14,130 nucleotides of DNA from Planctomycetota bacterium (lineage in GTDB: Bacteria > Planctomycetota > UBA11346). Both the position numbers and the translations under genes were made by a program. Positions 2,439 to 13,655 of this stretch are shown here, in pieces. Numbering within the stretch: position 1 is the stretch's first letter; each line of letters opens with the position of its first letter. The stretch lies in NCBI GenBank assembly GCA_038213805.1, contig JBBQSO010000115.1, positions 1 through 14,130 of the forward strand. Direction: 5' to 3'. The notes beneath the pieces are model-generated. The model saw only the letters and a program-made list of their open reading frames with translations, made no database searches and was not told where the DNA came from.

Positions 2439-2600
2439 GCTGCAAGTCACGAGTCACGAGTCACGAGCTGCGAGCTGCGAGCTGCGAGCTGCGAGCTGCG
2501 AGCGACCTCGATTGTCGTTGAGTGGGGACTTGCGGATACCCGAGGCAGGGATTTTCGCGAGTCGCGTAACTCGTGACTCGTGACTCGCGACTCGCAGCTC
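2439..2600. repeat. Heptamer inverted-repeat module A
   Basis: Left arm (GTCACGA)x3 2446-2466 plus (GCTGCGA)x5 2467-2501; spacer 2502-2554; right arm TCGCGAG, then TCGTGAC x2, TCGCGAC, TCGCAGC (2571-2598), the reverse-complement unit type. Confidence 0.95.
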
Positions 2601-2737
2601 CGACTGTCCACTGGCCAAAACGCCCAGCACCTCACACACGTGGTCGTATATCCCATGCCGGAAGGTCGCGGCGCCCATGGCGTGCGGCGCCGCGGGCGCG
2701 TAAGCTGCATGCTGGACCCGCGCCCACCGGAGATCGC

Positions 2738-5557
2738 ATGCGCCACCACTTTATCGTCCCGGCCCTGCTGCTGGCCGCCCTTTGCACGCCCGTGGCGCAG
2801 GCCGCCGAGGGCATCCCGTTGGCCAGCCTCGACCTCGCGCCGATGACCCAAGAGTATGGCCGGCCAGCGGTCGACCGCAGCGTCGATGGGCGCCCGATGC
2901 GCATCGCCGGCCAGGAGTTCGCGCACGGGCTGGGCACGCATGCGGCCAGCCAGCTCACCATTCGGGTCGAGCGCCACGCGCTGCGCTTCCACGCCCGCGT
3001 CGGCGTCGATGACGAGGGCCCCGGCGGCACGGTCGAGTTCCGCATCTCCGGGGACGGCAAGCCGCTGTGGTCCAGTGGCACCATGCGCGCAGGCCAGCCC
3101 GCCAAGGAGGTCGACGTGCCGCTCGCAGGCGTGGCGCTGCTGAAGCTCGAGACCGACGCGACCGCGGACGGCAACAAAGACGACCACGCCGACTGGGTGG
3201 AGGCGGAGCTGGTCATGCTGGATGGCGCCAAACCCACCACCATCGCCGACCCCGACGCCGAGCGCGACGCCGGCGCAGGCGAGCGCACGCCCTCGCACGC
3301 GCAGTACTTCACCTGGATCAACAACACCAACGAGGGCGCCACCGAGGCGCACACCCTGACCAACTTCGCCTTCTTCCGCTGGCTGCGCGAGATGTACGGC
3401 ATGCAGCTCGACATCTATGCCTGGGATGCCGGCAATCTCGACCTGCCGCGCGGCTACGGCACTACCGACAGCGCACGCTTCCGTGCCCAATACCCGCGCG
3501 GCTGGCAGCCGATCGCCGACGCCGCCGGCGCGCTCGGCTGCCGGCTCGGCCTATGGGGCGGTCCCGACGGCTTCGGCGACACGCCTGAGCAGGCGGCCGC
3601 GCGCATCGCGCTGATGTCCGGGCTGTGCCGCGACTACCGCATGGCCGAGTTCAAGTTCGATGGCGTGTGCGGCCAGCTGCGCCCCGAGAAGCAGGACTAT
3701 TTCGTACAAATGATGCAGGCGTGCCGGAAGTACAGCCCGGACCTGGTGCTGCTCAACCACCGGCTGCCGCTCGGCAAGGGCCTGCGCTACGCCACCACCT
3801 TCCTGTTCGAGGGCGCCGAGACCTACATCGACGTGCACATGGCCAACACCGGCACGGCCACCCACCACCGCGCCGGCGCCCTCGCCCGCGGCCTGCCGCC
3901 GCGCCTGACGCGTCTGACCGAGGACCACGGCGTGTGCATCTCGTCGTGCCTCGACGCCTGGGACGACGACCTGGTGCTGCAGGCCTTCAACCGTTCGCTG
4001 ATCCTCGCGCCCGAGATCTACGGCAACCCCTGGCTGCTGCGCGATGACGAATACCCGAAGCTGGCGCGCATCTACAATCTGCACCGCCGCTGGCGCGACC
4101 TCCTCACCCAGGGCATGGTGCTGCCCGCTGACGACTACGGCCCGTCTGCGGTCGCGCGCGGGGACGCGGCGACGCGCGTGGTGACGCTGCGCAACCTCGG
4201 CTGGGAGCCGCGCACCTACCAGGTGGCGCTCGACGAGGCCATCGGCCTGTCCGCCCCCGGCGCGGTCATGGTGCGCCTCTTCCATCCGCACGAGCGCATC
4301 CTCGGCACCCGGGCACACGGCGAGCGCGTGCCAGTGACGGTCGCGCCGTTCTCGGTCGCCCTGCTGCTTGCCACCACCGCGCCGTGCGCCGAACCGGGCG
4401 TGTCCGGCTGCGACGCAGAGGTCGTGCGCGACGTGCCTGGCAAGCCTCTGGTGCTGCGTCTGCTTGGCCTGCCCGGCACGACCGCGACGGCGACGTTCAC
4501 GCCCGGGCGCATGCCCGCCAAGACGGCGACCATCGACGGCCAGCCGCTGCCCGGCTTCGCCGCAGGCCAGCCGGTCTCCGTGACCTTCCGGGGCGCACCG
4601 TTGGCGCAGCCCAGCCACCGCCGCCTCGCCGAACTCGCGCCCTGCGCGGTGCCCGCCGATGCAGAGGCGCTCTACGAAGCGACCTGCTTCGCCGCCGACA
4701 ACGATGCGCTCGAGGCGCGCTCACTGCGTCGTTCAGGGCCGACGCTGGTGCCGCAGGTGCAGGCCGCGCGCGACGCCTTCTTCGCCCAGGAACTGTTCCG
4801 CACCCGCGGGTGCTGGGACAAGCTGCTCTTCGATGGCGAGCGCGGCACCGGTCTGGTGCAGGGTGGCCGGCTGCCGACGAACGTGGATGGTCAGCCCGAG
4901 CTGCGCCTCGACCTCGGCGCGCCGACCGTCGCCGACAGCTTCTCGCTGCAACTCGCCGGCGGCACCACCAGCGGCCAGGCCGAGGGCTCCGCCGACCTGC
5001 TCCGCTGGACGGTGCTGCCGACCACCGTCACCGCAGAGCAGGTGACCATCACCCCGCCCGCGCGCATGGCCCTGCGCTACCTGCGCCTCGCGCGCGGCTC
5101 CATGCACATCTGCGAGGTGACTGCCGAGCAGGGCGGCCTCGCTCTGCCGCGTACCTCCTGGCGCGCTTCGGAGCTCTTCGAGTCCTACACCAGGCGCACC
5201 GCGACCGCCGCCTGGAGCGCGACCGTCACGCTCGGCCACGAGGCTCCCGGCAGCTACCTGTGCATCGCGCTGGAAGGCGAACACGGCGTCGACGGCGCCT
5301 GGGCCGCCGCGCGCCTCGCCGGCCGCCCGCTCGGCTGCCCGGACCGCGCGCCGTCGTTCCTCAGCAACGTCTGGGAGGCACCGGTGCGGCAGGCCGGCAG
5401 CAACCTCACCTATTACCTGCCGGTGACACCCGACATGGCCGGCAAAGCGCTCGACCTGGTGGTGCTGACGCTGGCCAACGGCAAGAACACGTACAAGCCG
5501 GTGGCCTGGATCACCAGCCGCGAGCCGATGGTGGGCAGGGTGGTGGTGGTGGAATGA
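2738..5557 (+). CDS. Secreted 939-aa protein: signal peptide, NPCBM/NEW2 module, putative clan GH-D-like TIM-barrel glycosidase and C-terminal beta-sandwich (discoidin-like) regions
   Basis: GGAG RBS 2729-2732 before ATG 2738; signal peptide MRHHFIVPALLLAALCTPVAQA; NPCBM motifs DRSVDG..MRIAG..FAHGLGTHA, FHARVGVDD, VEFRISGDGK.LW, GNKDDHADW; GH27/36-like LDIYAWDAG and FKFDG; late DLG...SADLLRW...RYLR...ICEV. Confidence 0.8.
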   Translation: MRHHFIVPALLLAALCTPVAQAAEGIPLASLDLAPMTQEYGRPAVDRSVDGRPMRIAGQEFAHGLGTHAASQLTIRVERHALRFHARVGVDDEGPGGTVEFRISGDGKPLWSSGTMRAGQPAKEVDVPLAGVALLKLETDATADGNKDDHADWVEAELVMLDGAKPTTIADPDAERDAGAGERTPSHAQYFTWINNTNEGATEAHTLTNFAFFRWLREMYGMQLDIYAWDAGNLDLPRGYGTTDSARFRAQYPRGWQPIADAAGALGCRLGLWGGPDGFGDTPEQAAARIALMSGLCRDYRMAEFKFDGVCGQLRPEKQDYFVQMMQACRKYSPDLVLLNHRLPLGKGLRYATTFLFEGAETYIDVHMANTGTATHHRAGALARGLPPRLTRLTEDHGVCISSCLDAWDDDLVLQAFNRSLILAPEIYGNPWLLRDDEYPKLARIYNLHRRWRDLLTQGMVLPADDYGPSAVARGDAATRVVTLRNLGWEPRTYQVALDEAIGLSAPGAVMVRLFHPHERILGTRAHGERVPVTVAPFSVALLLATTAPCAEPGVSGCDAEVVRDVPGKPLVLRLLGLPGTTATATFTPGRMPAKTATIDGQPLPGFAAGQPVSVTFRGAPLAQPSHRRLAELAPCAVPADAEALYEATCFAADNDALEARSLRRSGPTLVPQVQAARDAFFAQELFRTRGCWDKLLFDGERGTGLVQGGRLPTNVDGQPELRLDLGAPTVADSFSLQLAGGTTSGQAEGSADLLRWTVLPTTVTAEQVTITPPARMALRYLRLARGSMHICEVTAEQGGLALPRTSWRASELFESYTRRTATAAWSATVTLGHEAPGSYLCIALEGEHGVDGAWAAARLAGRPLGCPDRAPSFLSNVWEAPVRQAGSNLTYYLPVTPDMAGKALDLVVLTLANGKNTYKPVAWITSREPMVGRVVVVE

Positions 5558-5569
5558 ATGGCGATGGGA

Positions 5570-5748
5570 GTGGCGAGGGGCGAGTGGCGAGTCGCGAGTC
5601 GCGAGCTGCGAGCTGCGAGCTGCGAGCTGCGAGACTCAAGACTGAGACAACAGCTCACTTGATGCGCACGTCGGGAGCGATTTTCTCGCCTCTCGCCTCT
5701 CGCCTCTCGCTGCTCGCTGCTCGCGACTCGAAACTCGCGACTCGTGAG
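5570..5748. repeat. Heptamer inverted-repeat module B between convergent genes
   Basis: Left arm 5570-5632: GTGGCGA, GGGGCGA, GTGGCGA, GTCGCGA x2, GCTGCGA x4; 53-nt spacer 5633-5685; right arm 5686-5748: TCGCCTC x3, TCGCTGC x2, TCGCGAC, TCGAAAC, TCGCGAC, TCGTGAG. Confidence 0.95.
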
Positions 5749-5754
5749 CGCAAA

Positions 5755-6936
5755 CTAATCGAGGGCCGGAAGATGGACGGTGAAGACCGTGCCGACGCCT
5801 TCGTGGGAGGCTACGCGGATCCAGCCGCCGTGGCTCTCGGCAATCTTCTTGCAGATGGCCAGACCGAGGCCCGAGCCGTCGTAGGTACCGCCGGTAAAGG
5901 CGCGCTGGAAGGCGCCGAAGATGCGCTCCTGATACGCTGGGGCGATGCCGATGCCGTTGTCGCGGACCGCCAGCACCCAGCCGGCGCCGTCGCGGGTCGC
6001 GGAGACGTGGACCACGGGCGGGCGCCCCGCGGCGCGGAACTTGAGGGCGTTGCCAATGAGGTTCTGCAGCAGCTGGAGGAGACGCGTGGCGTCGCCGCGC
6101 ACCATCGGCAACGCGTCGGCGGTGACCGTGCCGTGGGTCTCGGTGATGCGGCTGGTGAGGTTGTCGACCGCGGCCGCGAAGGCCTCGCCCAGGTCGACGG
6201 CTACCGCCTCGCCCTCCTCTCCGAGGCGGGCGTAGGCGAGCAGGTTGCCGATCAGCGCCTGCATGCGCGTGGTCCCGGCCATGGCGCGACCGATGTAGCC
6301 ACGTGCATCTTCGCCAAGCTGCCCGGCGCAGCGGTCCTCGAGCAGGGTCAGGAAGCCGGCCACCATGCGCAGCGGCTCCTGTAGGTCGTGACTGGCCACG
6401 GCGGCGAAGCGCTCGAGCTCGTGGTTGCTGGTCTCAAGCGCCGCGACCGCGTTGCGCAGCTCCTCCTCACCGCGCAGGCGGTCGGTGATGTCGCGCGTCG
6501 AGCCGGCGACCGCCTCCACCACGCCGTCCTCGGCCAGCACCGGGACGAAGATGTACTCGTAGTGGCGCGTACTGCCGTCCGGCCCGGTGAAAGGGGTCTG
6601 ATCGCGGACCTGCCCGCGCGTGGCGATGACCTCCTGGATTTGACGCTGCAGGCGCGCCGCCAGCTCGGTCGGATAACCAAGTTCGAAGAAGTCCCGCCCG
6701 ACGGCTTCCGCGAGGGGCTTCTGCCAGAGCATGAGCAGGGCCCGGTTGACATACAGAAAGCGGCCGTCGAGGTCGAAGATGTACGTGAAGTCGGGGGTGT
6801 GCGACAGCGCCGTGTCGAACAGCCGCCACTGCTTCCCGGTGCCGCGGGCGATGCGTGCGGTCTCTGGTCCGCGCAATCGCGTTGGGTGGAGCGCCGCCTG
6901 GTCAGCGGCGGGAATGGCAGCGGTGGGGTCCATCAT
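5755..6936 (-). CDS. Cytoplasmic PAS/PAC sensor histidine kinase (HisKA + HATPase)
   Basis: PAS region (YIFDLDGRFLYVN...AVAGSTRDIT), H-box ASHDLQEPLR, N-box NLIGNALKF, G1 DNGIGI, F-box IFGAFQR, G2 GSGLGLAICKKI. Start taken as ATG 6936 (or 6933); uncertain. Confidence 0.9.
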   Translation of the reverse strand: MMDPTAAIPAADQAALHPTRLRGPETARIARGTGKQWRLFDTALSHTPDFTYIFDLDGRFLYVNRALLMLWQKPLAEAVGRDFFELGYPTELAARLQRQIQEVIATRGQVRDQTPFTGPDGSTRHYEYIFVPVLAEDGVVEAVAGSTRDITDRLRGEEELRNAVAALETSNHELERFAAVASHDLQEPLRMVAGFLTLLEDRCAGQLGEDARGYIGRAMAGTTRMQALIGNLLAYARLGEEGEAVAVDLGEAFAAAVDNLTSRITETHGTVTADALPMVRGDATRLLQLLQNLIGNALKFRAAGRPPVVHVSATRDGAGWVLAVRDNGIGIAPAYQERIFGAFQRAFTGGTYDGSGLGLAICKKIAESHGGWIRVASHEGVGTVFTVHLPALD

Positions 6937-7036: not shown

Positions 7037-8803
7037 TCACAGCACCGTGTGCCACGACGGACTCACCGCGAATGCCGACATGATCAATCCCACGTGCGAG
7101 TAGCACTGCGGGAAGTTGCCGCTCTGCGTCGTGGTCGCCGGGTCGAAGTGCTCGGCGAACAGGCCCAGGGGGTTGGCCGCCTTGAGCGCCTTGCCCAGCA
7201 CCGCGGCGCCCTCCTCGACGCGGCCGAGGCGCGCGAGGGCCTCGGCCATCCAGAACGAGCAGATCAGGAAGGGGTGTTTGGGCGTGCCGAAGTCATCGTG
7301 GTGGCGGTAGCGGTAGTAGAACCCGCTCGCCGGGTCGCCACCCCAGGCAAGGTCCTTGGCGATGTGGTCGACGGTGCGCTCGCACAGCCCACGGTCGGGG
7401 AAGCCCAGCGTGGGCAGCAGCAGCAGTGCTGAGTCCGCGGTGCGGTGCCCCGGCGCGCTCCACAGCACGCCATCTGACACCGCGCGCTCGATGGCGGCGC
7501 GCGCGGTGTCGCGCCAACCGTCGATCTGCGCCGCGTCGCCGCGGATGCGGCCCATGCCGATCAGACGCGCGTAGCGGTCGAGCGCGGTCCACGACATCAT
7601 CGCGGTGTAGGTGTGCGGCTTCCAATCGCCGCGCAGCTCCCACAGCCCGGCATCGGGCTCGTCGAGGGTATCCAGACAGCGCGCCGCCAGGGTCGCGAGC
7701 AGCTCGTCGTAGTGGCGCGAGCGCAGGTGCGCGAAGCGCTCGTCGAAGTAGAGCCGCGAGAGCATCATCAGCATCTGCCCATAGACGTCGTTCTGCACGT
7801 GCTCGGCGGCCTGGTTCTCGGTGCGCACCGGCTTGGACCCGCGGTAGCCGGCCCAGTTCGTGCGCTCGGTCTCGGGTAGCGGGCGGGTGCCGTCGACGCG
7901 GTAGACGGGGTGCAGGCGGCCGACGTTCTCGCGGTGGATGACGTCGAACATGAAGCGCAAGATGCCTTCGAGCTCCTCGAAATGGCCGAGTCGATGGATG
8001 GCCGAGACCGTGAAGTAGGCGTCGCGCAGCCAGCAGAAACGGTAGTCCCAGTTGCGCACGTCGCCGACGATCTCGGGCAGGCTGGTGGTGATCGCGGCCA
8101 ACACCGCGCCGGTCTCCTCGAAGCAGTGCAGCTTGAGTGCCAGCGCCGAGCGGATGACCTCGCGCTGGAACAGCACGGGGGTGTTGCAGCCCATCACCCA
8201 GTTCCGCCACCACTGCTCGGTGCGCAGCTGGAAGGTTTCGACCAGCGTCGCCAGGTCGTCCTCCGGCGGCACCCCCCAGGTGAGGATGAAGTAGAGCGGC
8301 ACGCTCAGCGTCGCGTGTGTCCCGGCGAGCAGCTGGGTGAGCGGCATGGTGGTCGACAGGCGCAATTCGTCGTCCAGACCGAGGAAGCGCACGTGGCTGC
8401 TGCCGCGCTGCATGGGCGCGGGCTCCTTGCTCCAGCCCTGCACCGGTTGGATCTCGACGTTGATCTTGGGCAGACCGCTGAGGGGAATCACCTTGCGCAT
8501 CAGCATCAGCGGCCGGTAGGTGCGCCCGAACTGCTCGAAGCGCGGGAAGAAGTCGATGACCGCGAAGCGGTTGCCCTCAGCGTCCTCGTGGATGGTCTCG
8601 AGGACGTTGGTCGACTCCAGGTAGCGCTGACTGGACGTGCCGGGGCGCGCCGCCGCGATCGAGAAGTGCCCGCCTTGCGGGTCGAGCAGGCGTCCGAACA
8701 CCGGCGGCGAGTCGGGCCGCGGCAGGCACATCCAATCGATGGAGCCGTCGCGCCCGACCAGGGCCGATGCCTGGCAATTACCGATGAGGCCGAGTTGATA
8801 CAT
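7037..8803 (-). CDS. Glycoside hydrolase family 15 (trehalase/glucoamylase-like)
   Basis: N-terminal GLIGNCQASALV..DGSIDWMCLPRPDSPPVFGRLLD, RNWDYRFCWLRD, QNDVYG, PDAGLWELR, FLICSFW, ANPLGLFAEH, GNFPQCYSHVGLI. Confidence 0.92.
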   Translation of the reverse strand: MYQLGLIGNCQASALVGRDGSIDWMCLPRPDSPPVFGRLLDPQGGHFSIAAARPGTSSQRYLESTNVLETIHEDAEGNRFAVIDFFPRFEQFGRTYRPLMLMRKVIPLSGLPKINVEIQPVQGWSKEPAPMQRGSSHVRFLGLDDELRLSTTMPLTQLLAGTHATLSVPLYFILTWGVPPEDDLATLVETFQLRTEQWWRNWVMGCNTPVLFQREVIRSALALKLHCFEETGAVLAAITTSLPEIVGDVRNWDYRFCWLRDAYFTVSAIHRLGHFEELEGILRFMFDVIHRENVGRLHPVYRVDGTRPLPETERTNWAGYRGSKPVRTENQAAEHVQNDVYGQMLMMLSRLYFDERFAHLRSRHYDELLATLAARCLDTLDEPDAGLWELRGDWKPHTYTAMMSWTALDRYARLIGMGRIRGDAAQIDGWRDTARAAIERAVSDGVLWSAPGHRTADSALLLLPTLGFPDRGLCERTVDHIAKDLAWGGDPASGFYYRYRHHDDFGTPKHPFLICSFWMAEALARLGRVEEGAAVLGKALKAANPLGLFAEHFDPATTTQSGNFPQCYSHVGLIMSAFAVSPSWHTVL

Positions 8804-8844
8804 GCGCGGTCATCCCAGGGTGTCTGTCGTGCAAGATAAGATAA

Positions 8845-8860
8845 GCTGCGATTGTGCCAA
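8845..8860 (-). promoter_or_regulatory. Possible sigma-54 (-24/-12) promoter for the GH15 gene
   Basis: Minus strand reads TTGGCACAATCGCAGC: TGGCAC matches the -24 consensus with correct GG-N10-GC spacing, about 42 nt upstream of the start codon. The -12 element is CAGC rather than TTGC. Confidence 0.3.
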
Positions 8861-9056
8861 GTCGTGCACGCTCGCTGAAAAATCGCGCTCAGCGCACCCC
8901 GAGCAGCGCGCAGCGGCATTCCTGATGCCCAGTTCGCTGCAATACGCACGATCCTATGGATGCGCGGACGTCGTTCCGCCTGGAGCCACGGCTGCATGAC
9001 CACCATCGCGGTGTGCACATGATGCAGCTTATGGCGTTGCTCAAGGCCAACTCCAA

Positions 9057-9136
9057 GTTGCGCGCCATGAGTCGCGAGTGAAGGCAGGCTGTCCTCGCGA
9101 CTCGCGACTCGCGACTCGCTGCCCGTAACTTGCAAC
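9057..9136. repeat. Heptamer inverted-repeat module C with conserved core
   Basis: Left GTTGCGC GCCATGA GTCGCGA (9057-9077); core GTGAAGGCAGGCTGTCC (9078-9094); right TCGCGAC x3, TCGCTGC, CCGTAAC, TTGCAAC (9095-9136). Lies 23 nt past the proA stop. Confidence 0.9.
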
Positions 9137-9159
9137 GCGCACCGTGCGACTTCTCCCGC

Positions 9160-10494
9160 TCAGGCCCTGACCTGCCCCTCACCACGGCACACCCACTTGT
9201 AGGTGCACAGCTCGCGGATGCCCATCGGGCCGCGCGCGTGCACGCGGTTGGTGCTGATGCCGACCTCGGCGCCGAAGCCGAACTGGCCGCCATCGGTGAA
9301 GCGTGTCGAGGCGTTGTGGTAGACGCAGGCGCTGTCGACCTCGCGCAGGTAGGTCTCGGCCGCGGCGACGTCTGCGGTGACGATGCCGTCGCTGTGGTGG
9401 CTGCCGTGCCGCTCGGTGAAGCGGATCGCCTCGTCCAGGTCGTCGACCACCTTCACCGCCAGGATCAGCGCCAAGTACTCGGTCTCCCAGTCGGCGTCGC
9501 CCGCCGCCACGGCCCCGGGCAGCAGCGGCAGCGCGCGCGCGTCGGCGCGCAGCTCGACCCCGCGCGGCGCGAGCTCGGCCTGGAGCATCGGCAGGAAGCG
9601 CTGACTGACCGCCGCGTCGACCAGCAGGTTCTCGATGGCGTTGCACACCCCGGGGCGCTGGCACTTGGCGTTGACCACCAGGCGCAGGGCCATGGCGAGA
9701 TCGGCCGCGGCGTGCACGTAGAGGCTGCACACGCCCTTGTCGTGCTTGATCACCGGGACCTTGCTGCACGCCACCACCGCCTGGATGAGCGCCTCGCCGC
9801 CGCGCGGCACGACGATGTCGATGGCGTCGTCGCGGGCCAGCAGCACCGGGATCAGGGCGCGGTCTTGCTCCTGCACCAGCTGCACGGCGTCGGCGGGCAC
9901 GCCGGCAGCCGCCAGGCCGCGGCGGAAGGCCGTGGCGAGCGCGCGGTTGCTGTGCACCGCCTCCTTGCCGCCGCGCAGGATGCAGGCGTTGCCCGAGCGC
10001 AGGCACAGGCTGGCCGCGTCGACGGTGACGTTGGGCCGGCTCTCGAAGATGATCGCGACCACGCCGATTGGCACGGCCAGCTTCTGCGCGCGCACGCCCT
10101 GGGCGATGACGCGCTCCTCCAGCACCTGGCCGACCGGGTCGGGCAGGGTGGCGACCTGACGCAGGTCGGCGACCAGCGCGGCGAGGCGCGGGCCGTCGAG
10201 GCGCAAGCGGTCGACCATGGCCGCCGCCAGCCCATCGACGCGCGCCTGCTCAAGGTCCTTGGCGTTGGCCGCGAGCAGCGCCGCGCCGTCAGCCGCGAGC
10301 GCGTCCGCCGCCGCCAGGATGGCCGCGCGCCGCGAGGCGTCGCCCAGCAGCGCCAGGGCGCGCGCCGCCGGCCGGGCGCGCGCGCACAGCTCGGCGACGT
10401 GCGCGGCGATACGCGCCGTGGCTTCCGCCTGCGGACCCGCGGTGGCACGCTGGGCGGAGGCGGACGCGGGCGGGGTGGGCAGGGACTGGCTCAT
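9160..10494 (-). CDS. proA: Gamma-glutamyl phosphate reductase (glutamate-5-semialdehyde dehydrogenase)
   Basis: LPDPVG, VPIGVVAIIFESRPNVT, SGNACILRGGKEA, IVVPRGGEALI, NAKCQRPGVCNAIENLLV, HGSHHSDGIVT, VDSACVYHNASTRFTDGGQFGFGAEVGIST..HARGPMG..ELCTYK. ATG 10494 chosen. Confidence 0.96.
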   Translation of the reverse strand: MSQSLPTPPASASAQRATAGPQAEATARIAAHVAELCARARPAARALALLGDASRRAAILAAADALAADGAALLAANAKDLEQARVDGLAAAMVDRLRLDGPRLAALVADLRQVATLPDPVGQVLEERVIAQGVRAQKLAVPIGVVAIIFESRPNVTVDAASLCLRSGNACILRGGKEAVHSNRALATAFRRGLAAAGVPADAVQLVQEQDRALIPVLLARDDAIDIVVPRGGEALIQAVVACSKVPVIKHDKGVCSLYVHAAADLAMALRLVVNAKCQRPGVCNAIENLLVDAAVSQRFLPMLQAELAPRGVELRADARALPLLPGAVAAGDADWETEYLALILAVKVVDDLDEAIRFTERHGSHHSDGIVTADVAAAETYLREVDSACVYHNASTRFTDGGQFGFGAEVGISTNRVHARGPMGIRELCTYKWVCRGEGQVRA

Positions 10495-10600
10495 GGTAGG
10501 CGCAGCTTCGCGTTCGCCCCGCCCGCGCAAGCCGCGCGCCGCCAACGATGGCACCGGGAACCGCCATTGCCGACCCGCACCCGCGCGCTCTCATGCCATC

Positions 10601-11533
10601 ATGCTGCTGCTCATCATGCGACGGCTCGGCGCCGGGCTGGCGGTGGTGTGGCTGGTGCACCTGCTGACCTTCGCCGCCCTGCGCCTGATGCCCGGCGACC
10701 CCTGGGCCGACCTCGCCGGCGACCGCGCCGTACCGGCCGCGACGGTTGCGCGCATGCAGGCGCTCTACGGGCAGGACCGCCCGATGGTCGTCCAGTACGC
10801 CGACGACCTGTGGGCCAAGCTGCACGGCGACCTCGGCGCCAGCCTCAAGCTCGCCGCCGGCCACGACGTCGGCGACCTGCTGCTGCGCGCCGCGCCAGTG
10901 TCGCTCAGCCTCGGGTGCGGCGCGCTGCTGCTGGCCCTGGGCTTCGGTCTGCCCGCCGGGATCCTCGCTGCTCGCCGCGCGCGCGCCGGCGCCGCCGCTG
11001 CCGACCACGTGGTGCGCGCCCTCGCCACGCTCGGCAGCAGCACGCCCGCCTTCGTCGTCGGCCCGCTGCTGCTGATCGTCTTCAGCCTGACCCTGGGTTG
11101 GCTGCCCGCCGGCGGCATCGACCGCCCCGGCGCGCTGCTGCTGCCGATCGCCACCCTCGCCCTGCCGCTCGCCGCCGAATTCGCCCGCCTGGTGCGCGCC
11201 AGCCTACTCGGCGAACTCGGCGCCGACTTCGTGCGCACCGCGCGCGCCAAAGGCGCGGACGAAACGACCATCGTCCTCGATCACGCTTTACGCCCGGCCT
11301 TCGCTCCCGTGCTCGCCTACCTCGGCACCGCTGCCGCCAGCGTGCTGACTGGGGCGATGGTGGTGGAGTCGCTGTTCGCCATTCCGGGGCTGGGCTACTA
11401 CTTCGTCACCGGTGCGCTGCAGCAGGACTGGACGGTGGTCAGCGGCGCGGCGCTGCTCTACGCCGTTGCGATAGTGATCTGCAATCTGGCGGCGGATCTG
11501 GGGATGATGTGGTTGGATCCGCGGACGCGGTGA
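10601..11533 (+). CDS. Peptide/nickel ABC transporter permease, OppB/DppB type
   Basis: N-terminal RRL...LTFAALRLMPGDP, YGQDRP..VQY, GDLGAS; hydrophobic segments; EAA loop ELGADFVRTARAKGADETTIVLDHALRP; VESLFAIPGLG; C-terminal NLAADL...LDPR. Confidence 0.92.
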   Translation: MLLLIMRRLGAGLAVVWLVHLLTFAALRLMPGDPWADLAGDRAVPAATVARMQALYGQDRPMVVQYADDLWAKLHGDLGASLKLAAGHDVGDLLLRAAPVSLSLGCGALLLALGFGLPAGILAARRARAGAAAADHVVRALATLGSSTPAFVVGPLLLIVFSLTLGWLPAGGIDRPGALLLPIATLALPLAAEFARLVRASLLGELGADFVRTARAKGADETTIVLDHALRPAFAPVLAYLGTAAASVLTGAMVVESLFAIPGLGYYFVTGALQQDWTVVSGAALLYAVAIVICNLAADLGMMWLDPRTR

Positions 11534-11540
11534 AGAGGGC

Positions 11541-11610
11541 TTCTCGCTTCTCGCTTCTCGCTTCTCGCTTCTCGCTTCTCGCTTCTCGCTTCTCGCTTCT
11601 CGCTTCTCGC
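11541..11610. repeat. Perfect heptamer microsatellite D, (TTCTCGC)x10
   Basis: Ten exact copies starting 8 nt after the permease stop. In the TCG-NNN-C phase the unit is TCGCTTC, reverse complement GAAGCGA. Confidence 0.97.
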
Positions 11611-11670
11611 TTGGGAGACGGAAACTGCAGCGATGGCGCGGGCATGTCGGGAATTCTTTGCGGTTGCGGG

Positions 11671-11821
11671 GTGTGCTCTCCTTCAGGAACCCCGATTGTC
11701 CCGAGCGTGCTCGCCGTCAAGGAGCTGCGGCTGCGCCTTCGCCCGCGGGGCGCGGCGGCCGGGGCGGCCGTCCTTGACCGCTGCGCGCGCTCTGGGGTGG
11801 GGTGAGGAAAGGAGAGCAGAC
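11671..11821 (+). promoter_or_regulatory. Predicted long hairpin leader sequestering the RBS of the four-helix-bundle gene
   Basis: Nested complementary pairs: TGCTCTCCTT 11674-11683 / AAGGAGAGCA 11809-11818; ACCCC 11689-11693 / GGGGT 11799-11803; GAGCGTGC 11703-11710 / GCGCGCTC 11785-11792; GTCAAGGA 11716-11723 / TCCTTGAC 11771-11778; GCTGCGCC 11730-11737 / GGCGCGGC 11749-11756 (some with G-U pairs). Confidence 0.65.
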
Positions 11822-12175
11822 ATGCCTCGATACGAGCGATTCAGGGTTTGGCATACGGCGCGGGAGGTGGTGAAGGAGGTACAGCTGGCTGCGGCGGAAT
11901 TCGGCGACTGCGGCGGAGGACTGACCAACCAGCTCCGGCGCGCGGCGATCTCCATCGCGTCCAATATCGCGGAGGGATCCGAGAAGACCTCCGACGCGGA
12001 ACTGCGGCGGTACTTCGCCATCGCGCGGGGATCCTGCGCGGAAGCGACCGCGCAGGTGACCATCGCGTACGATATGGGACTCGTGAACGAGGAGCGCTTC
12101 GTGACGCTCACGGACCGGCTGGACCACGTCGGTCGGATGCTCTCCGCCTTCATCACCCGCCTGGAAAGCGGGTGA
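11822..12175 (+). CDS. Four-helix-bundle protein (23S rRNA intervening-sequence protein family, structurally Avd-like), 117 aa
   Basis: Strong RBS AGGAAAGGAG before ATG 11822; hallmark motifs VW..A, GLTNQLRRAAISIASNIAEG and F.IARGS..E...Q..IA.D.G. Confidence 0.92.
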   Translation: MPRYERFRVWHTAREVVKEVQLAAAEFGDCGGGLTNQLRRAAISIASNIAEGSEKTSDAELRRYFAIARGSCAEATAQVTIAYDMGLVNEERFVTLTDRLDHVGRMLSAFITRLESG

Positions 12176-12199
12176 TTGGGGTGATCACCTACGACCTGA

Positions 12200-12487
12200 G
12201 TCACGAGTGGCGAGAAGCGAGAAGCGAGTGGCGAGTGGCGAGTCGCGAGGAAGACCGGCTGTCCTCGCGACTCGCGGCTCGAAACTCGCAGCTCATCGCA
12301 ACGTTGCGCGGAGTTAGCCACGAGTCGCGAGTCACGAGGAGGACCGGCTGTCCTCGCGACTCGCGACTCGAAGCTCGAAGCTCAACCCCTTCCGTTGCGC
12401 GAAACCAGCCACGAGCTGCGAGTCACGAGTTGCGAGCGCAGGCAGGCCGTCTTCGCGACTCGCGACTCGCAGCTCGAAACTGGTCAC
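12200..12487. repeat. Cluster E: three tandem heptamer inverted-repeat modules
   Basis: E1 12200-12292 (7 left units, core GGAAGACCGGCTGTCC, 4 right units); E2 12317-12381 (3 left, core GGAGGACCGGCTGTCC, 4 right); E3 12408-12480 (4 left, core GCGCAGGCAGGCCGTCT, 4 right). Both linkers contain CGTTGCGCG. Confidence 0.95.
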
Positions 12488-12539
12488 TCCATTGCACGTA
12501 AACACCTCGCGCCACGAACGACGTCAAGCGGCGAAGACG

Positions 12540-13655
12540 CTACCGCACCCCGATCTTGCTATCCGTCACCCGCCGCCGGTACGCCCGGCTCCCCTCGTTC
12601 TTCGCCCCCGCGCTCTGCGCCGTGCAGATCGCGGCATGGTACAGCTCGACCGCGGCCGGGCCGACCACGGCGATGTCGAAGCGTGCGGCGGCCAGGCGCG
12701 CGGCGGCGCTGCGGCTCGCGCGCAGATCGCCGCTGCGCGCAAGTGCGACGATGGCGCCGGCGAGCGCGCTGGGGTCGCCGGCGGCGACCAGGGTGCCGCT
12801 CTCGCCGTCGGTGATCAGTTCGGCCATGCCGCCGACGGCGCTGGCGATCACCGCGCGGCCGCAGGCCAGGGCCTCGATCACCAGCGCGGCGGAGCGGTCG
12901 GTGCGCGGCGCGTGCACCAGCACGTCGCTGGCGGCGAGCAGCGCGGCGGCGGGGACCTCGCCAAGATCGCGGATCCAGTCCGGATCCTCCAGGCCAATCG
13001 CGCTCAGGGCTTCGGCCAGGTCGGGGCCGCCGCCGGCCACCACCAGGCGCACGTCAAGGTCGCGGCGCAGGGCCACCATGGCGGCGAGCAGGTCACCGGC
13101 GCCGGCGGCCTCGTCGTAAGGTCCGGCCATGCCCACGACCAGCGGTCCGCCGACCGGGCGCGGCGCGCGCGCGGCGCAGGCAGCGACATCGACGGCATAG
13201 GGCAGGATGCTGACGCGGTCGCGGCCCAGGCCGAAGGCGGCGATGGCGGAGGCGCGGTGGTTCTCGGTGGGGACCAGCACCCAGGACACGCGGCGGTCCT
13301 GCAGTCCATGCACCCGCGCCGCGTCGGCGAGGTGGGCGACGCTCGCCACCACCGGCAGGTGCAGGCGGCGGGCCAGGGTGCGCGCGGCCGGCAGCGAGCC
13401 CAGGCCGTGGAGATGGATCAGGTCGGGGTTCCAGGCGCCCACGCGGGCGATCAACTCGTGCCGGCCGCCCAGCCACCAGCGCGGCCGCGACGCGTGGATG
13501 GGGATGCAGGTAGTGCCGTCGAGGCTGCCCTCGCCTGGGGCGGCGAGCGCCACCTGGTGGTCGTTGGCGCGCAACCAGCTCATCATTGGCAGGACATCGC
13601 CGGCCTGGGCAGCAGCCAGGGAGTCGGCGATGTGGAGGACGCGGAGGCCGATCAC
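12540..13655 (-). CDS. Glycosyltransferase family 4 (GT-B)-like protein with degenerate donor-binding motifs
   Basis: LRVLHI N-terminus, HQVALAAP, PDLIHLHG, ILPYAVD, LVVAGGGP, ASDVLV...VIEALACGRAVIASAVGGMAELITDGESGTLV..GDPSALAGAI. GTG 13655 chosen; the longer ORF extension overlaps yacG. Confidence 0.85.
   Translation of the reverse strand: MIGLRVLHIADSLAAAQAGDVLPMMSWLRANDHQVALAAPGEGSLDGTTCIPIHASRPRWWLGGRHELIARVGAWNPDLIHLHGLGSLPAARTLARRLHLPVVASVAHLADAARVHGLQDRRVSWVLVPTENHRASAIAAFGLGRDRVSILPYAVDVAACAARAPRPVGGPLVVGMAGPYDEAAGAGDLLAAMVALRRDLDVRLVVAGGGPDLAEALSAIGLEDPDWIRDLGEVPAAALLAASDVLVHAPRTDRSAALVIEALACGRAVIASAVGGMAELITDGESGTLVAAGDPSALAGAIVALARSGDLRASRSAAARLAAARFDIAVVGPAAVELYHAAICTAQSAGAKNEGSRAYRRRVTDSKIGVR

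Follow-up and report, generated by a model that had tools for sequence, protein, structure and literature searches.

The window analysed here (the whole 14,130-nt stretch from the draft genome of an uncultured planctomycete, hereafter G000) contains four copies of a hairpin repeat unit, with proA, GH15, ABC-permease and GT4-glycosyltransferase genes as their neighbours. One of them, M0 (9054..9132, plus strand), is a solo unit located 18 nt past the stop of the minus-strand proA gene and ahead of a terminator-like site (8905-8884). The other three, E1 (12198..12300), E2 (12301..12392) and E3 (12393..12492), form a tandem array on the plus strand, and a convergent GT4 glycosyltransferase gene stops at 12540, ∼50 nt past E3. 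The array adjoins a small plus-strand cassette that looks mobile and is composed of a (GCTTCTC)x10.6 array (11539..11612), which begins right after the ABC-permease stop and forms the upstream arm, a structured leader (11654..11806) and a gene for a 122-aa PF05635 protein (11807..12175; E 9e-27, 95 bits versus a cut-off of 33.8), i.e. a 23S rRNA intervening-sequence protein (IVP) or Avd-like four-helix bundle. Two other CGAG-type heptamer hairpins lie elsewhere in the window, one (2439..2605) with an unrelated ∼64-nt centre between AraC-family and NPCBM genes, the other (5559..5747) with an unrelated 48-nt centre, filling the gap between convergent NPCBM and histidine-kinase genes.

All four units follow the same plan, with a GTTGCG...CGCAAC base, arms made of CGAGNNN heptamers on the left and NNNCTCG heptamers on the right, and a 15-nt apical core. 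A sequence-only reading of the window had drawn attention to these cores, and all four were re-found on the plus strand, in a common orientation and with a shared 3' TCGCGACTCGCG: 9078-9094 in M0 (GTGAAGGCAGGCTGTCC), 12249-12264 in E1 (GGAAGACCGGCTGTCC), 12338-12353 in E2 (GGAGGACCGGCTGTCC) and 12436-12452 in E3 (GCGCAGGCAGGCCGTCT). The perfect 14-bp stem described for E1 is likewise present, 12238-12251 (GCGAGTCGCGAGGA) being the exact reverse complement of 12262-12275, with AGACCGGCTG as its loop. Each core forms the tip of the loop in a paralogous copy of one 80-100-nt hairpin repeat unit. Beyond the core, the units also have a spacer/base motif in common (CGTTGCGCG..AGCCACGAG), and their ends are inverted 7-nt sequences (CGTTGCG...CGCAACG); in the four window units the loops measure 10-17 nt and contain no ORF. 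The tandem units have a common spacer, E2 beginning with CGTTGCGCGG..AGCCACGAG, and recur with a period of 89 (2.2 copies, 83% matches by TRF; array periods of 89-99 nt), and E2 is 84% identical to E1 over 79 nt.

The predicted RNA folds of E1 (-64.8 kcal/mol, z -5.3), E2 (-48.2 kcal/mol) and E3 (-60.1 kcal/mol, z -6.8) have z values from -4.5 to -6.8 and were equalled by none of 200 shuffles. M0, whose 26-nt arms are 81% complementary, has a less stable fold (-40.5 kcal/mol, z -2.2), matched by 4 of 200 shuffles. Overall, the unit stems are predicted to be very stable on both strands. Both-side changes are seen at 1 of 21 stem pairs, and selection for pairing appears to be weak, since the arms match imperfectly (79-88% complementarity) and the left arms have not retained their complementarity to the right ones. 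Arm variation comes in whole-heptamer steps: E1 and its counterpart in a related genome (G010) differ in their left arms, and a related strain in sequencing run X3 has one extra heptamer (a 7-nt insertion) behind 12477.

The exact pattern GGCYGTCYTCGCGAC occurs four times in the 5.50-Mb draft genome, always within the window. Altogether, G000 has seven copies of the unit at three loci, the three further ones being located on another contig (C37:3842-4059, minus strand). A genome search with seven 15-nt core variants gave seven exact matches, each flanked by heptamer arms, and two-sided arms were found at none of the 160 matches with 1-2 mismatches. A covariance model of arms and core scored the seven copies at 65-78 bits (M0 78.2, E1 77.5, E2 74.7 and E3 75.3) versus 51 bits for the best unrelated CGAG-armed hairpin, with forward-strand scores 14-43 bits above the reverse-strand ones. 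Related copies are present at three loci in G010, one other genome out of 10 in the genus and the sole match among the 60 other genomes searched. Two observations had been named in advance as evidence against a dispersed element, namely cores without heptamer arms, which were looked for and never found, and confinement to one local duplication, which is at odds with the copies on C37 and in G010. These copies, together with the shared spacer and base, bear out the view that the cores mark one discrete, oriented element rather than independent slippage. This subfamily sits within a genome-wide set of 466 period-7 and 264 period-8 arrays, most of which form inverted pairs; in G000, 113 inverted array pairs have gaps of ≤260 nt, and adjacent pairs are in left-right order in 25 cases versus 6 in the reverse order.

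The similarity of the cores exceeds chance, but the description of the core as conserved holds for one part of it: per column, over 10 copies in two species, the 3' half with the first 12 nt of the right arm shows 92-93% identity, and the 5' half 80%. Two core subtypes differ in the bases of the loop proper (GACCGGC versus GGCAGGC), E1 and E2 having type-1 and M0 and E3 type-2 cores, and the M0 core is identical at 15 of 15 positions to one of the G010 cores. The window and C37 arrays are ordered in parallel, with a type-1 core first and a type-2 core last, which, together with the tiny size of the family, is consistent with a few duplication or recombination events rather than active transposition. 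With respect to neighbouring genes, as the sequence-only reading had proposed to check, the core is sense in the IVP 3' region and antisense to the proA and MreB-like transcripts. Both the variation of the 5' half and this independence of transcription suggest that the cores are alike by common descent rather than as a loop recognition site. The right arm and the 3' half of the core are conserved beyond the neutral-decay expectation, and some sequence-specific constraint may act on them.

The adjacent cassette (11539-12249) is an inverted-repeat stem enclosing the PF05635 ORF. Its upstream array (11539..11612) is complementary to GAGAAGC units at 12211-12224 and, more broadly, to the outer left arm of E1 (CGAGAAG/CGAGTGG units, 12204-12249), with which it is predicted to pair in the MFE fold of 11525-12500. 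In the leader, an invariant CGTGCTCG pairs with CTGCGCGCG, there is an inner GTCAAGG/CCTTGAC stem, and visual inspection pairs the Shine-Dalgarno sequence with a CTCCTT stretch upstream of it. An alignment of 18 leaders contains 16 pairs, 4 of them changed on both sides; the leader model, scoring 97.8 bits at the window, finds the leader in 23 of 101 genomes, and Rfam gave no match for it. Orthologs of the IVP are 95% identical in G010 and 80% in G003, at other sites in both, and the same GCTTCTC array lies upstream of the 80%-identical gene (G003:C7). We know of no role for the very large PF05635 family outside the Avd proteins of retroelements.

For six of the ten best unit copies (E1-E3, two on G010:C796 and one on G010:C593), there is a PF05635 gene at a distance of no more than ∼300 nt, and the three C37 copies adjoin a ∼40-60-nt remnant of the IVP leader. 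At G010:C235, weaker relatives of the unit flank another IVP gene on both sides; M0 is without an adjoining IVP gene, the nearest being 2.7 kb off. A period-7/8 array occurs within 330 nt of 24 of the 25 IVP loci in the genus, and 14 loci are flanked by arrays on both sides, the corresponding numbers for 2000 random G000 intervals being 165 and 4.

A comparison with relatives, also suggested by the sequence-only reading, showed that the unit occupies some orthologous sites in sister genomes and is missing at others, which are either empty or occupied by another hairpin family. M0 is absent from the orthologous G010 spacer, where the proA flank is 94% identical, and the filled and empty proA sites, which align imprecisely, define no target-site duplication or exact insertion boundary. 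Downstream of proA, G005, G008 and G009 each carry their own array pair. In G003, where the flanks are 90% identical, the gap between the permease and GT4 genes contains neither the cassette nor the three units but a single 134-nt hairpin from a different family, and G010 carries a cassette and units where G000:C71 has neither.

The nature of the data invites the suspicion of neutral debris or of an artefact of assembly, with the units being a single local duplication dispersed by mis-joined contigs of a metagenome bin. Indeed, G000 is a bin of 180 contigs, the genomes compared are likewise fragmented metagenome bins, 23 period-7 arrays reach contig ends, and rearrangement breakpoints between G000 and G010 fall inside the repeats, where assembly chimeras are possible. 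However, the sequences flanking M0 are unique on either side, and single Logan contigs from runs X1 and X2 span its region (8800-9273) with 0 differences, these runs possibly being the source samples and hence not independent. Positions 12258-12273 are bridged by none of the listed contigs, and relatives of the array ends are found in runs X3 and X4. Compared with the window copies, those on C37 have other arms and differ at 1-6 of 15 core positions, and are therefore not duplicates of the same reads; with the family also present in a second species, we find this explanation barely credible. A role in host-gene expression has more to recommend it, as every unit is located just past stop codons, between convergent genes or in a 3' region, the stems are predicted to be so stable on both strands, and different species have some hairpin at the same gene end (proA in G005, G008 and G009). 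The units would then be selected RNA elements, bidirectional factor-independent terminators or 3'-end stabilisers, with the core kept for that role. Yet no unit is followed by a T/U tract, and a scan of the window for intrinsic terminators was negative at the units, returning only two sites, both at 8905-8884 on the minus strand. Separate T-run terminator-like hairpins lie beyond M0 (at these positions) and beyond the C37 array, M0 is absent from G010, and termination needs no three tandem copies, all of which makes such a role rather unlikely.

Two further explanations involve a factor acting on the units. The sequence-only reading had suggested that the loop may be a recognition or cleavage site, so that a protein or nuclease (e.g. 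the IVP protein or a hairpin-specific recombinase) would mobilise the element through its asymmetric loop. The oriented core, the high conservation of its 3' half and right arm across 10 copies in two species, and the IVP gene adjoining most copies are all consistent with this, as is the fact that the PF05635 relatives of diversity-generating retroelements (Avd) are nucleic-acid-binding pentamers. On the other hand, the loop-proper bases vary between subtypes, orientation relative to transcription is inconstant, other CGAG-armed hairpins by IVP genes (e.g. C9) have different loops, there are merely seven copies, and the units are linked to no nuclease or recombinase. The oriented element thus stands, and the proposed recognition or cleavage role of the loop finds no support and appears improbable. 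We consider it highly improbable that the units are REP/REPIN- or MITE-type elements that depend on a RAYT (Y1 transposase), a different transposase or the integron integrase for movement in trans. G000 does have Y1_Tnp genes (5 matches) and an integron integrase (contig C7; 376 bits versus a cut-off of 265), and the units are palindromic, with inverted 7-nt ends and presence/absence between genomes. However, the palindromes next to the RAYT-like genes are of other kinds (seen at three of the 4 Y1_Tnp matches with flanks inspected, C48, C97 and C70, with heptamer arrays at none of the 4), the units are without a GTAG or CGTC tag, their copy number is very low, and no transposase with ends matching them was found. 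The attC R''/R' consensus has a defined box order closing the hairpin; the end motifs of the units run opposite to it, and a crude attC scan gave 0 candidates genome-wide. No target-site duplication was found either, the proA sites being only imprecisely aligned.

We lean towards the explanation that the units are gene-less, IVS-like hairpins within a repeat system around the 'leader + PF05635 (IVP)' cassettes of this planctomycete lineage, spread by tandem duplication and recombination. Such an element would have no transposase of its own: unequal crossing-over inside the arrays would produce more copies, and new sites would be reached with the cassette or via recombination between arrays. 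Its core would be kept by recent common descent, not as a loop recognition site. As RNA, the units would at most form highly stable stem-loops in 3' untranslated regions or intergenic transcripts and, by analogy with 23S rRNA IVS stems, could shield 3' ends or serve as RNase III substrates. A bolder proposal, which we regard as quite unlikely, is that the units, the structured leader and the PF05635 gene constitute one composite mobile cassette, with the units as cis-acting ends or landing pads and the IVP pentamer as a trans factor for repeat-armed hairpins. As ends or landing pads, the units would therefore read outward on either side of IVP genes. Alternative pairing, either self-folding of the unit or pairing of the upstream array with the E1 left arm across the gene, could then determine the fate of the IVP message, either retention or excision by RNase III, and the gene-less heptamer hairpins of this and many other genomes would be non-autonomous satellites of cassettes.

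The 23S rRNA IVS of Coxiella burnetii, as described in PMC4990558, has an inverted-repeat stem that encloses an S23p ORF, contains tandem heptamers in variable number and is itself the site of cutting by RNase III; IVS with an S23p/PF05635 ORF are also described there for Leptospira and others. The likeness lies in the terminal inverted-repeat stem, in the variable tandem heptamers in or near it and, for the adjacent cassette, in the PF05635 gene inside the stem. In contrast to the IVS, the four units are ORF-less and tandem, have a conserved loop tip and are located in mRNA spacers rather than rRNA, none of which was found in the window by Rfam. Xanthomonas campestris and X. axonopodis have 70-75 convergent intergenic GGGAATC heptamer pairs per genome, whose length and sequence vary among close relatives while positions are kept (Rehm et al. 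2015, PMC4692102). The units share with them the opposite-strand convergent arrangement of 7-nt tandem repeats, the intergenic location and the variation of copy number and sequence between relatives, but differ in unit sequences, in the presence of several unit families in one genome, and in forming a subfamily with a short conserved oriented centre, a base motif, ∼90-nt tandem arrays and IVP cassettes alongside; no link to PF05635 is drawn in the available part of that report. REP/BIME/REPIN elements, described in PMC3733652 as GTAG- or CGTC-tagged extragenic palindromes with RAYT transposases and proposed roles in mRNA stabilisation or termination, are similarly short, located past gene ends and at times clustered. 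Unlike these, the units have no tag tetranucleotide and have arms of heptamer repeats, and the RAYT-like genes of G000 have their own REPs. Abundant intergenic 7-nt tandem repeats (TAACTGA), with a proposed post-transcriptional function, are reported for Beggiatoaceae, Cyanobacteria and Bacteroidetes in PMC4679880, where 169 sets are direct and one indirect, upstream of start codons; the present units, by comparison, are inverted pairs after stops.

Overall, the family is a local variant of the 7-base-repeat hairpins that many bacteria have in their intergenic regions. Intergenic DNA of bacteria is enriched in heptamer repeats, which, going by the reports on them, are still unexplained (PMC4692102, PMC4679880). 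New here are the unit family, its tie to the IVP cassette, and the leader, a conserved, covarying RNA present in multiple copies across a planctomycete family. The core and base motif provide a recognisable marker by which gene-less hairpin copies can be traced across loci and species, and the hairpins so marked travel with the IVP cassette. If the link between hairpin and cassette is not causal, the units are an ordinary fast-evolving repeat family; a causal link would point to a novel type of cassette, selfish or regulatory.

The four cores described in the sequence-only reading lie at 9078-9094, 12249-12264, 12338-12353 and 12436-12452, all on the forward strand and each directly followed by TCGCGACTCGCG, and the perfect 14-bp stem with a 10-nt loop seen in the first tandem copy (12238-12251 paired with 12262-12275) was likewise confirmed. 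By repeat search, each core (the 15-nt loop-tip sequence between CGAGNNN/NNNCTCG heptamer arms) sits within an inverted repeat, with arms of 33 nt (82% complementary, gap 10 nt) in tandem unit E1 (12198-12300), 25 nt (88%, gap 10 nt) in E2 (12301-12392), 32 nt (84%, gap 17 nt) in E3 (12393-12492) and 26 nt (81%, gap 27 nt) in the solo unit M0 (9054-9132). Homology reaches past the core, from a start CGTTGCGCG..AGCCACGAG to an end ..CGCAACG, which defines the unit as a long hairpin of 80-100 nt. The junction of neighbouring tandem units is a CGCAACGTTGCG palindrome, and TRF reports the array of E units as 2.2 copies of period 89 nt with 83% matches. Whichever strand is folded, E1-E3 are predicted as RNA at -48 to -65 kcal/mol (z -4.5 to -6.8), the fold of M0 being weaker (z about -2). 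A 17-nt lead-in, GCGCCATGAGTCGCGAG, is common to M0 (window 9054-9075) and an unrelated CGAG hairpin of the source draft genome G000 (C12:~64512-64541). Inspection by eye also found a TGA triplet just before the start of several other CGAG hairpins; at M0 no ORF ends there.

The exact pattern put forward earlier occurs only four times in G000 (5.50 Mb, 180 contigs, 69% G+C), and a looser one revealed three more tandem units, on the minus strand of contig C37. A covariance model of inner arms and core (R1) scored these seven copies at 65-78 bits, their reverse strands at 30-61 bits and any other CGAG-armed hairpin of G000 at 51 bits at best. No exact variant of the 15-nt core was found elsewhere in G000, and none of its 160 near-matches (1-2 mismatches) had arms on both sides. 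The interpretation offered with the original four copies is supported in part: the seven copies, the R1 scores and the C37 array bear out copies of one discrete oriented element, and the loop as a specific recognition or cleavage site is unsupported. The unusually good preservation of the 3′ half of the core and of the right arm still leaves room for the latter reading; over 10 copies, per-column identity is 93% in the core 3′ half, 92% in the first 12 nt of the right arm and 80% in the core 5′ half. Left arms are far more variable across copies, in part owing to 1-nt register shifts in the anchored comparison. Covariation in the unit stem (both-side changes in only 1 of 21 pairs) is uninformative, since the arms are repeats.

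Two core subtypes can be distinguished, GAAGACCGGCTGTCC-like (type 1) and GAAGGCAGGCTGTCC-like (type 2), both G000 arrays having type 1 in the first unit and type 2 in the last; on contig C796 of G010, a genome of the same genus, type 2 again closes the array and the opening unit stands between the two subtypes. A second unit on G010:C593, whose core looks inverted by eye, is not scored by R1, and loop flipping is not claimed. A scan of public genome contigs for the core together with two heptamers of the right arm returned 13 loci, with the element in L031 only, where two units and the flank are the same as in G010:C796; in three of the others (Victivallales, Verrucomicrobia, Halomonas) a heptamer array happens to follow the 7-mer, as expected by chance. 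The same scan of public metagenome contigs returned 25 loci, none with the element, 19 of them being one unrelated conserved soil sequence.

Several known identities were considered for the unit. Rfam returned only sub-threshold microRNA-hairpin noise on the window. A canonical intrinsic terminator was rejected as the units lack a T tract. RAYT-like genes, the partners expected for REP elements, are present in G000, but other palindromes flank them. An integron attC site was also rejected, the unit end motifs being in the wrong order and a crude attC scan finding nothing. An integron-integrase gene does occur at G000:C7:5021-5956 (TIGR02249, 376 bits against a cut-off of 265), and the crude scan showed no attC-like sites next to it.

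The units belong to a genome with a huge excess of period-7 tandem arrays: counting rows with at least 3 copies and a score of at least 40, TRF gives 7, 69, 485, 265, 90 and 15 for periods 5, 6, 7, 8, 9 and 10, respectively. Merging leaves 466 period-7 arrays (187 of GATGGCT type) and 264 period-8 arrays (204 of GTCCGGAA type), together 0.56% of G000; 23 period-7 arrays touch a contig end. Array pairs within 3 kb are inverted in 147 cases versus direct in 32, and 113 inverted pairs are separated by at most 260 nt, typically by 70-100 nt of unique sequence. The polarity of such close inverted pairs is always the same (e.g. 56/56 in the GATGGCT family). CGAG-anchored hairpins form a minor class (23 left-right pairs with a gap of at most 60 nt), within which only the seven copies carry the core and the GTTGCG...CGCAAC base motif. 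A gene-context census of 109 array pairs, based on GC3 gene calls, was discarded as unreliable because in the background convergent and divergent neighbour pairs equalled tandem pairs in number, and called ORFs ran into 28 of the modules; of its figures only the median distance from stop codon to array, 16 nt (n=85), was retained. Many GATGGCT-type pairs enclose a short GC-rich hairpin, (G)AAACCGGCGC-NNNN-GCGCCGGTTT(C), directly against one arm (e.g. C22:65282-65492, C61:25065-25243 and C130:1773-1932), which may be a native terminator or a second conserved module. At G000:C41:19601-19794 (L002) a CGAG-type unit is nested within an outer GGCTGAC/GTCAGCC array pair.

Pfam matches place on the forward strand of the window an apiosidase-like gene, an AraC family gene, an NPCBM protein gene (ending at 5557), an ABC permease gene (ending at 11533) and the PF05635 gene (11807-12175; 23S-rRNA-IVS/Avd-like, hereafter IVP), and on the reverse strand genes for a histidine kinase (ending at 5755), GH15 (7037-8803), a proA-like aldehyde dehydrogenase (ending at 9160) and a GT4 glycosyltransferase (ending at 12540). 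M0 lies 18 nt past the proA stop and is followed by a terminator-like hairpin with a T run (8905-8884) and by a GH15 promoter-like site. The IVP and GT4 genes are convergent, with E1-E3 filling the space between them, and the C37 array sits past a canonical-looking terminator of an MreB-like gene. In these positions the core is in sense orientation downstream of the IVP gene and antisense to the proA and MreB-like transcripts.

The association with IVP genes extends beyond the core-bearing family. Repeat arrays lie close to all five PF05635 genes of G000: that at C19:5907-6407, inserted between two neighbouring genes in an ABC-transporter operon, is enclosed by (GATGGCT)5 and (AGCCATC)4; that at C29:~26290-26700, between guaB-like and guaA-like genes (so identified from flanking translations), by inverted GTCCGGAA-type octamers; the window gene has (GCTTCTC)10.6 before it and, after it, CGAGAAG/CGAGTGG units that make up the E1 left arm; the C9 gene has two CGAG hairpins directly upstream, and the C6 gene only short arrays. 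The largest heptamer and octamer families of G000 therefore each recur as the arms of an IVP gene. Among 25 IVP loci of the genus, a period-7/8 array occurs within 330 nt in 24 (random G000 intervals, 165/2000), arrays on both sides in 14 (4/2000) and inverted-complementary units in 8 (1/2000). As for the core-bearing units, E1-E3 lie downstream of the window IVP gene, two follow its ortholog (95% identical) on G010:C796, one lies just upstream of another IVP leader on G010:C593, and the C37 array adjoins an IVP-type leader of which the first 40-60 nt are present, without the gene. A mirror-image orientation of units around IVP genes was not retained, there being only two effectively independent cases and G010:C235 being ambiguous. 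In the predicted MFE fold of 11525-12500 the upstream (GCUUCUC)n array reaches over the gene to pair with the left arm of E1, whose right arm pairs with E2, so local and long-range pairings are predicted to compete. Some relatives' leader-IVP cassettes are flanked by direct rather than inverted arrays (G025:C12, L103; G002:C643, L100; G002:C616, L077), and look as if inserted into a pre-existing array.

The ~145 nt upstream of the PF05635 gene constitute a conserved structured element (window 11654-11806; G000:C6:60622-60776 and C9:21260-21423), in which a GTCAAGG/CCTTGAC stem is enclosed by the pairing of an invariant CGTGCTCG with CTGCGCGCG. In 18 leaders, whose proteins are only 30-47% identical, 4 of 16 pairs change on both sides, and by eye the Shine-Dalgarno sequence pairs with a CTCCTT-type stretch upstream, the two varying together. 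The leader has no match in Rfam. A separate model for the leader (R2) gives matches in 23 of 101 genomes, among them 21 of the 47 other family members and 1 of 53 genomes from elsewhere; R2 matches across the family exceed 180 copies, and G071 has up to 31. The leader makes a candidate for a new cis-regulatory RNA, carried by a proliferating cassette.

Sister genomes show how labile these sites are. Core-level R1 matches were confined to one of 60 other genomes, G010, with arm-only matches in four. In G010 the proA-GH15 spacer lacks ~140 nt including M0, though proA is 94% identical; downstream of proA in G005, G008 and G009 are other array pairs. The permease-GT4 gap, 1005 nt in G000 (array, leader, IVP and three units), is 134 nt in G003, with a single AGACCCT-type hairpin between 90% identical flanks, and the G003 IVP ortholog (80% identical) is on contig C7 of that genome, where a long GCTTCTC-type array and the leader precede it once more. 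The IVP gene and its units are followed by GT4 in G000 and on G010:C796 by the MreB-like gene, which is on C37 in G000 (96.6% identical); the cassette and units adjoining a gene on G010:C593 correspond to a plain 170-nt spacer on G000:C71. These comparisons indicate fast turnover, hairpins and cassettes being rapidly gained, lost or replaced at orthologous sites and marking synteny breaks, in genomes that are fragmented bins, with assemblies that break, or may be mis-joined, at these repeats. Logan contigs from two metagenome runs, possibly the source samples, span M0 and 12257-12696 with 0 differences, which backs M0 as well as the array from the E1 core onwards, through E3 and into GT4; none of the Logan contigs listed bridges 12258-12273. 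In a third run, a related strain has one extra heptamer (AACTCGC) in the E3 right arm.

Overall, the units form an oriented repeat family with tandem amplification, whole-heptamer indels and association with IVP cassettes. Their arrays would grow by slippage and unequal crossing-over, and may spread by travelling with the cassette or through inter-array recombination; the role of the units, if any, might be that of stable stem-loops in RNA or of substrates for RNase III. Processing by RNase III is suggested by likeness to 23S rRNA intervening sequences: that of Coxiella has an S23p ORF inside a 28-bp inverted-repeat stem with variable-number heptamers on its 5′ side, and RNase III cuts in the stem (PMC4990558). 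Inverted intergenic heptamer pairs are described in Xanthomonas with no function assigned (PMC4692102), and direct heptamer repeats in Beggiatoaceae and cyanobacteria (PMC4679880). Our literature search, subscription journals excepted, found nothing tying PF05635 genes to heptamer hairpins outside rRNA, nor anything on such heptamer repeats in Planctomycetes. The unit family belongs to a known kind of repeat; what is new is a family that can be traced by its core and base motif, the tandem arrays that it forms next to an IVP cassette, site-by-site turnover in sister genomes and a conserved IVP leader.
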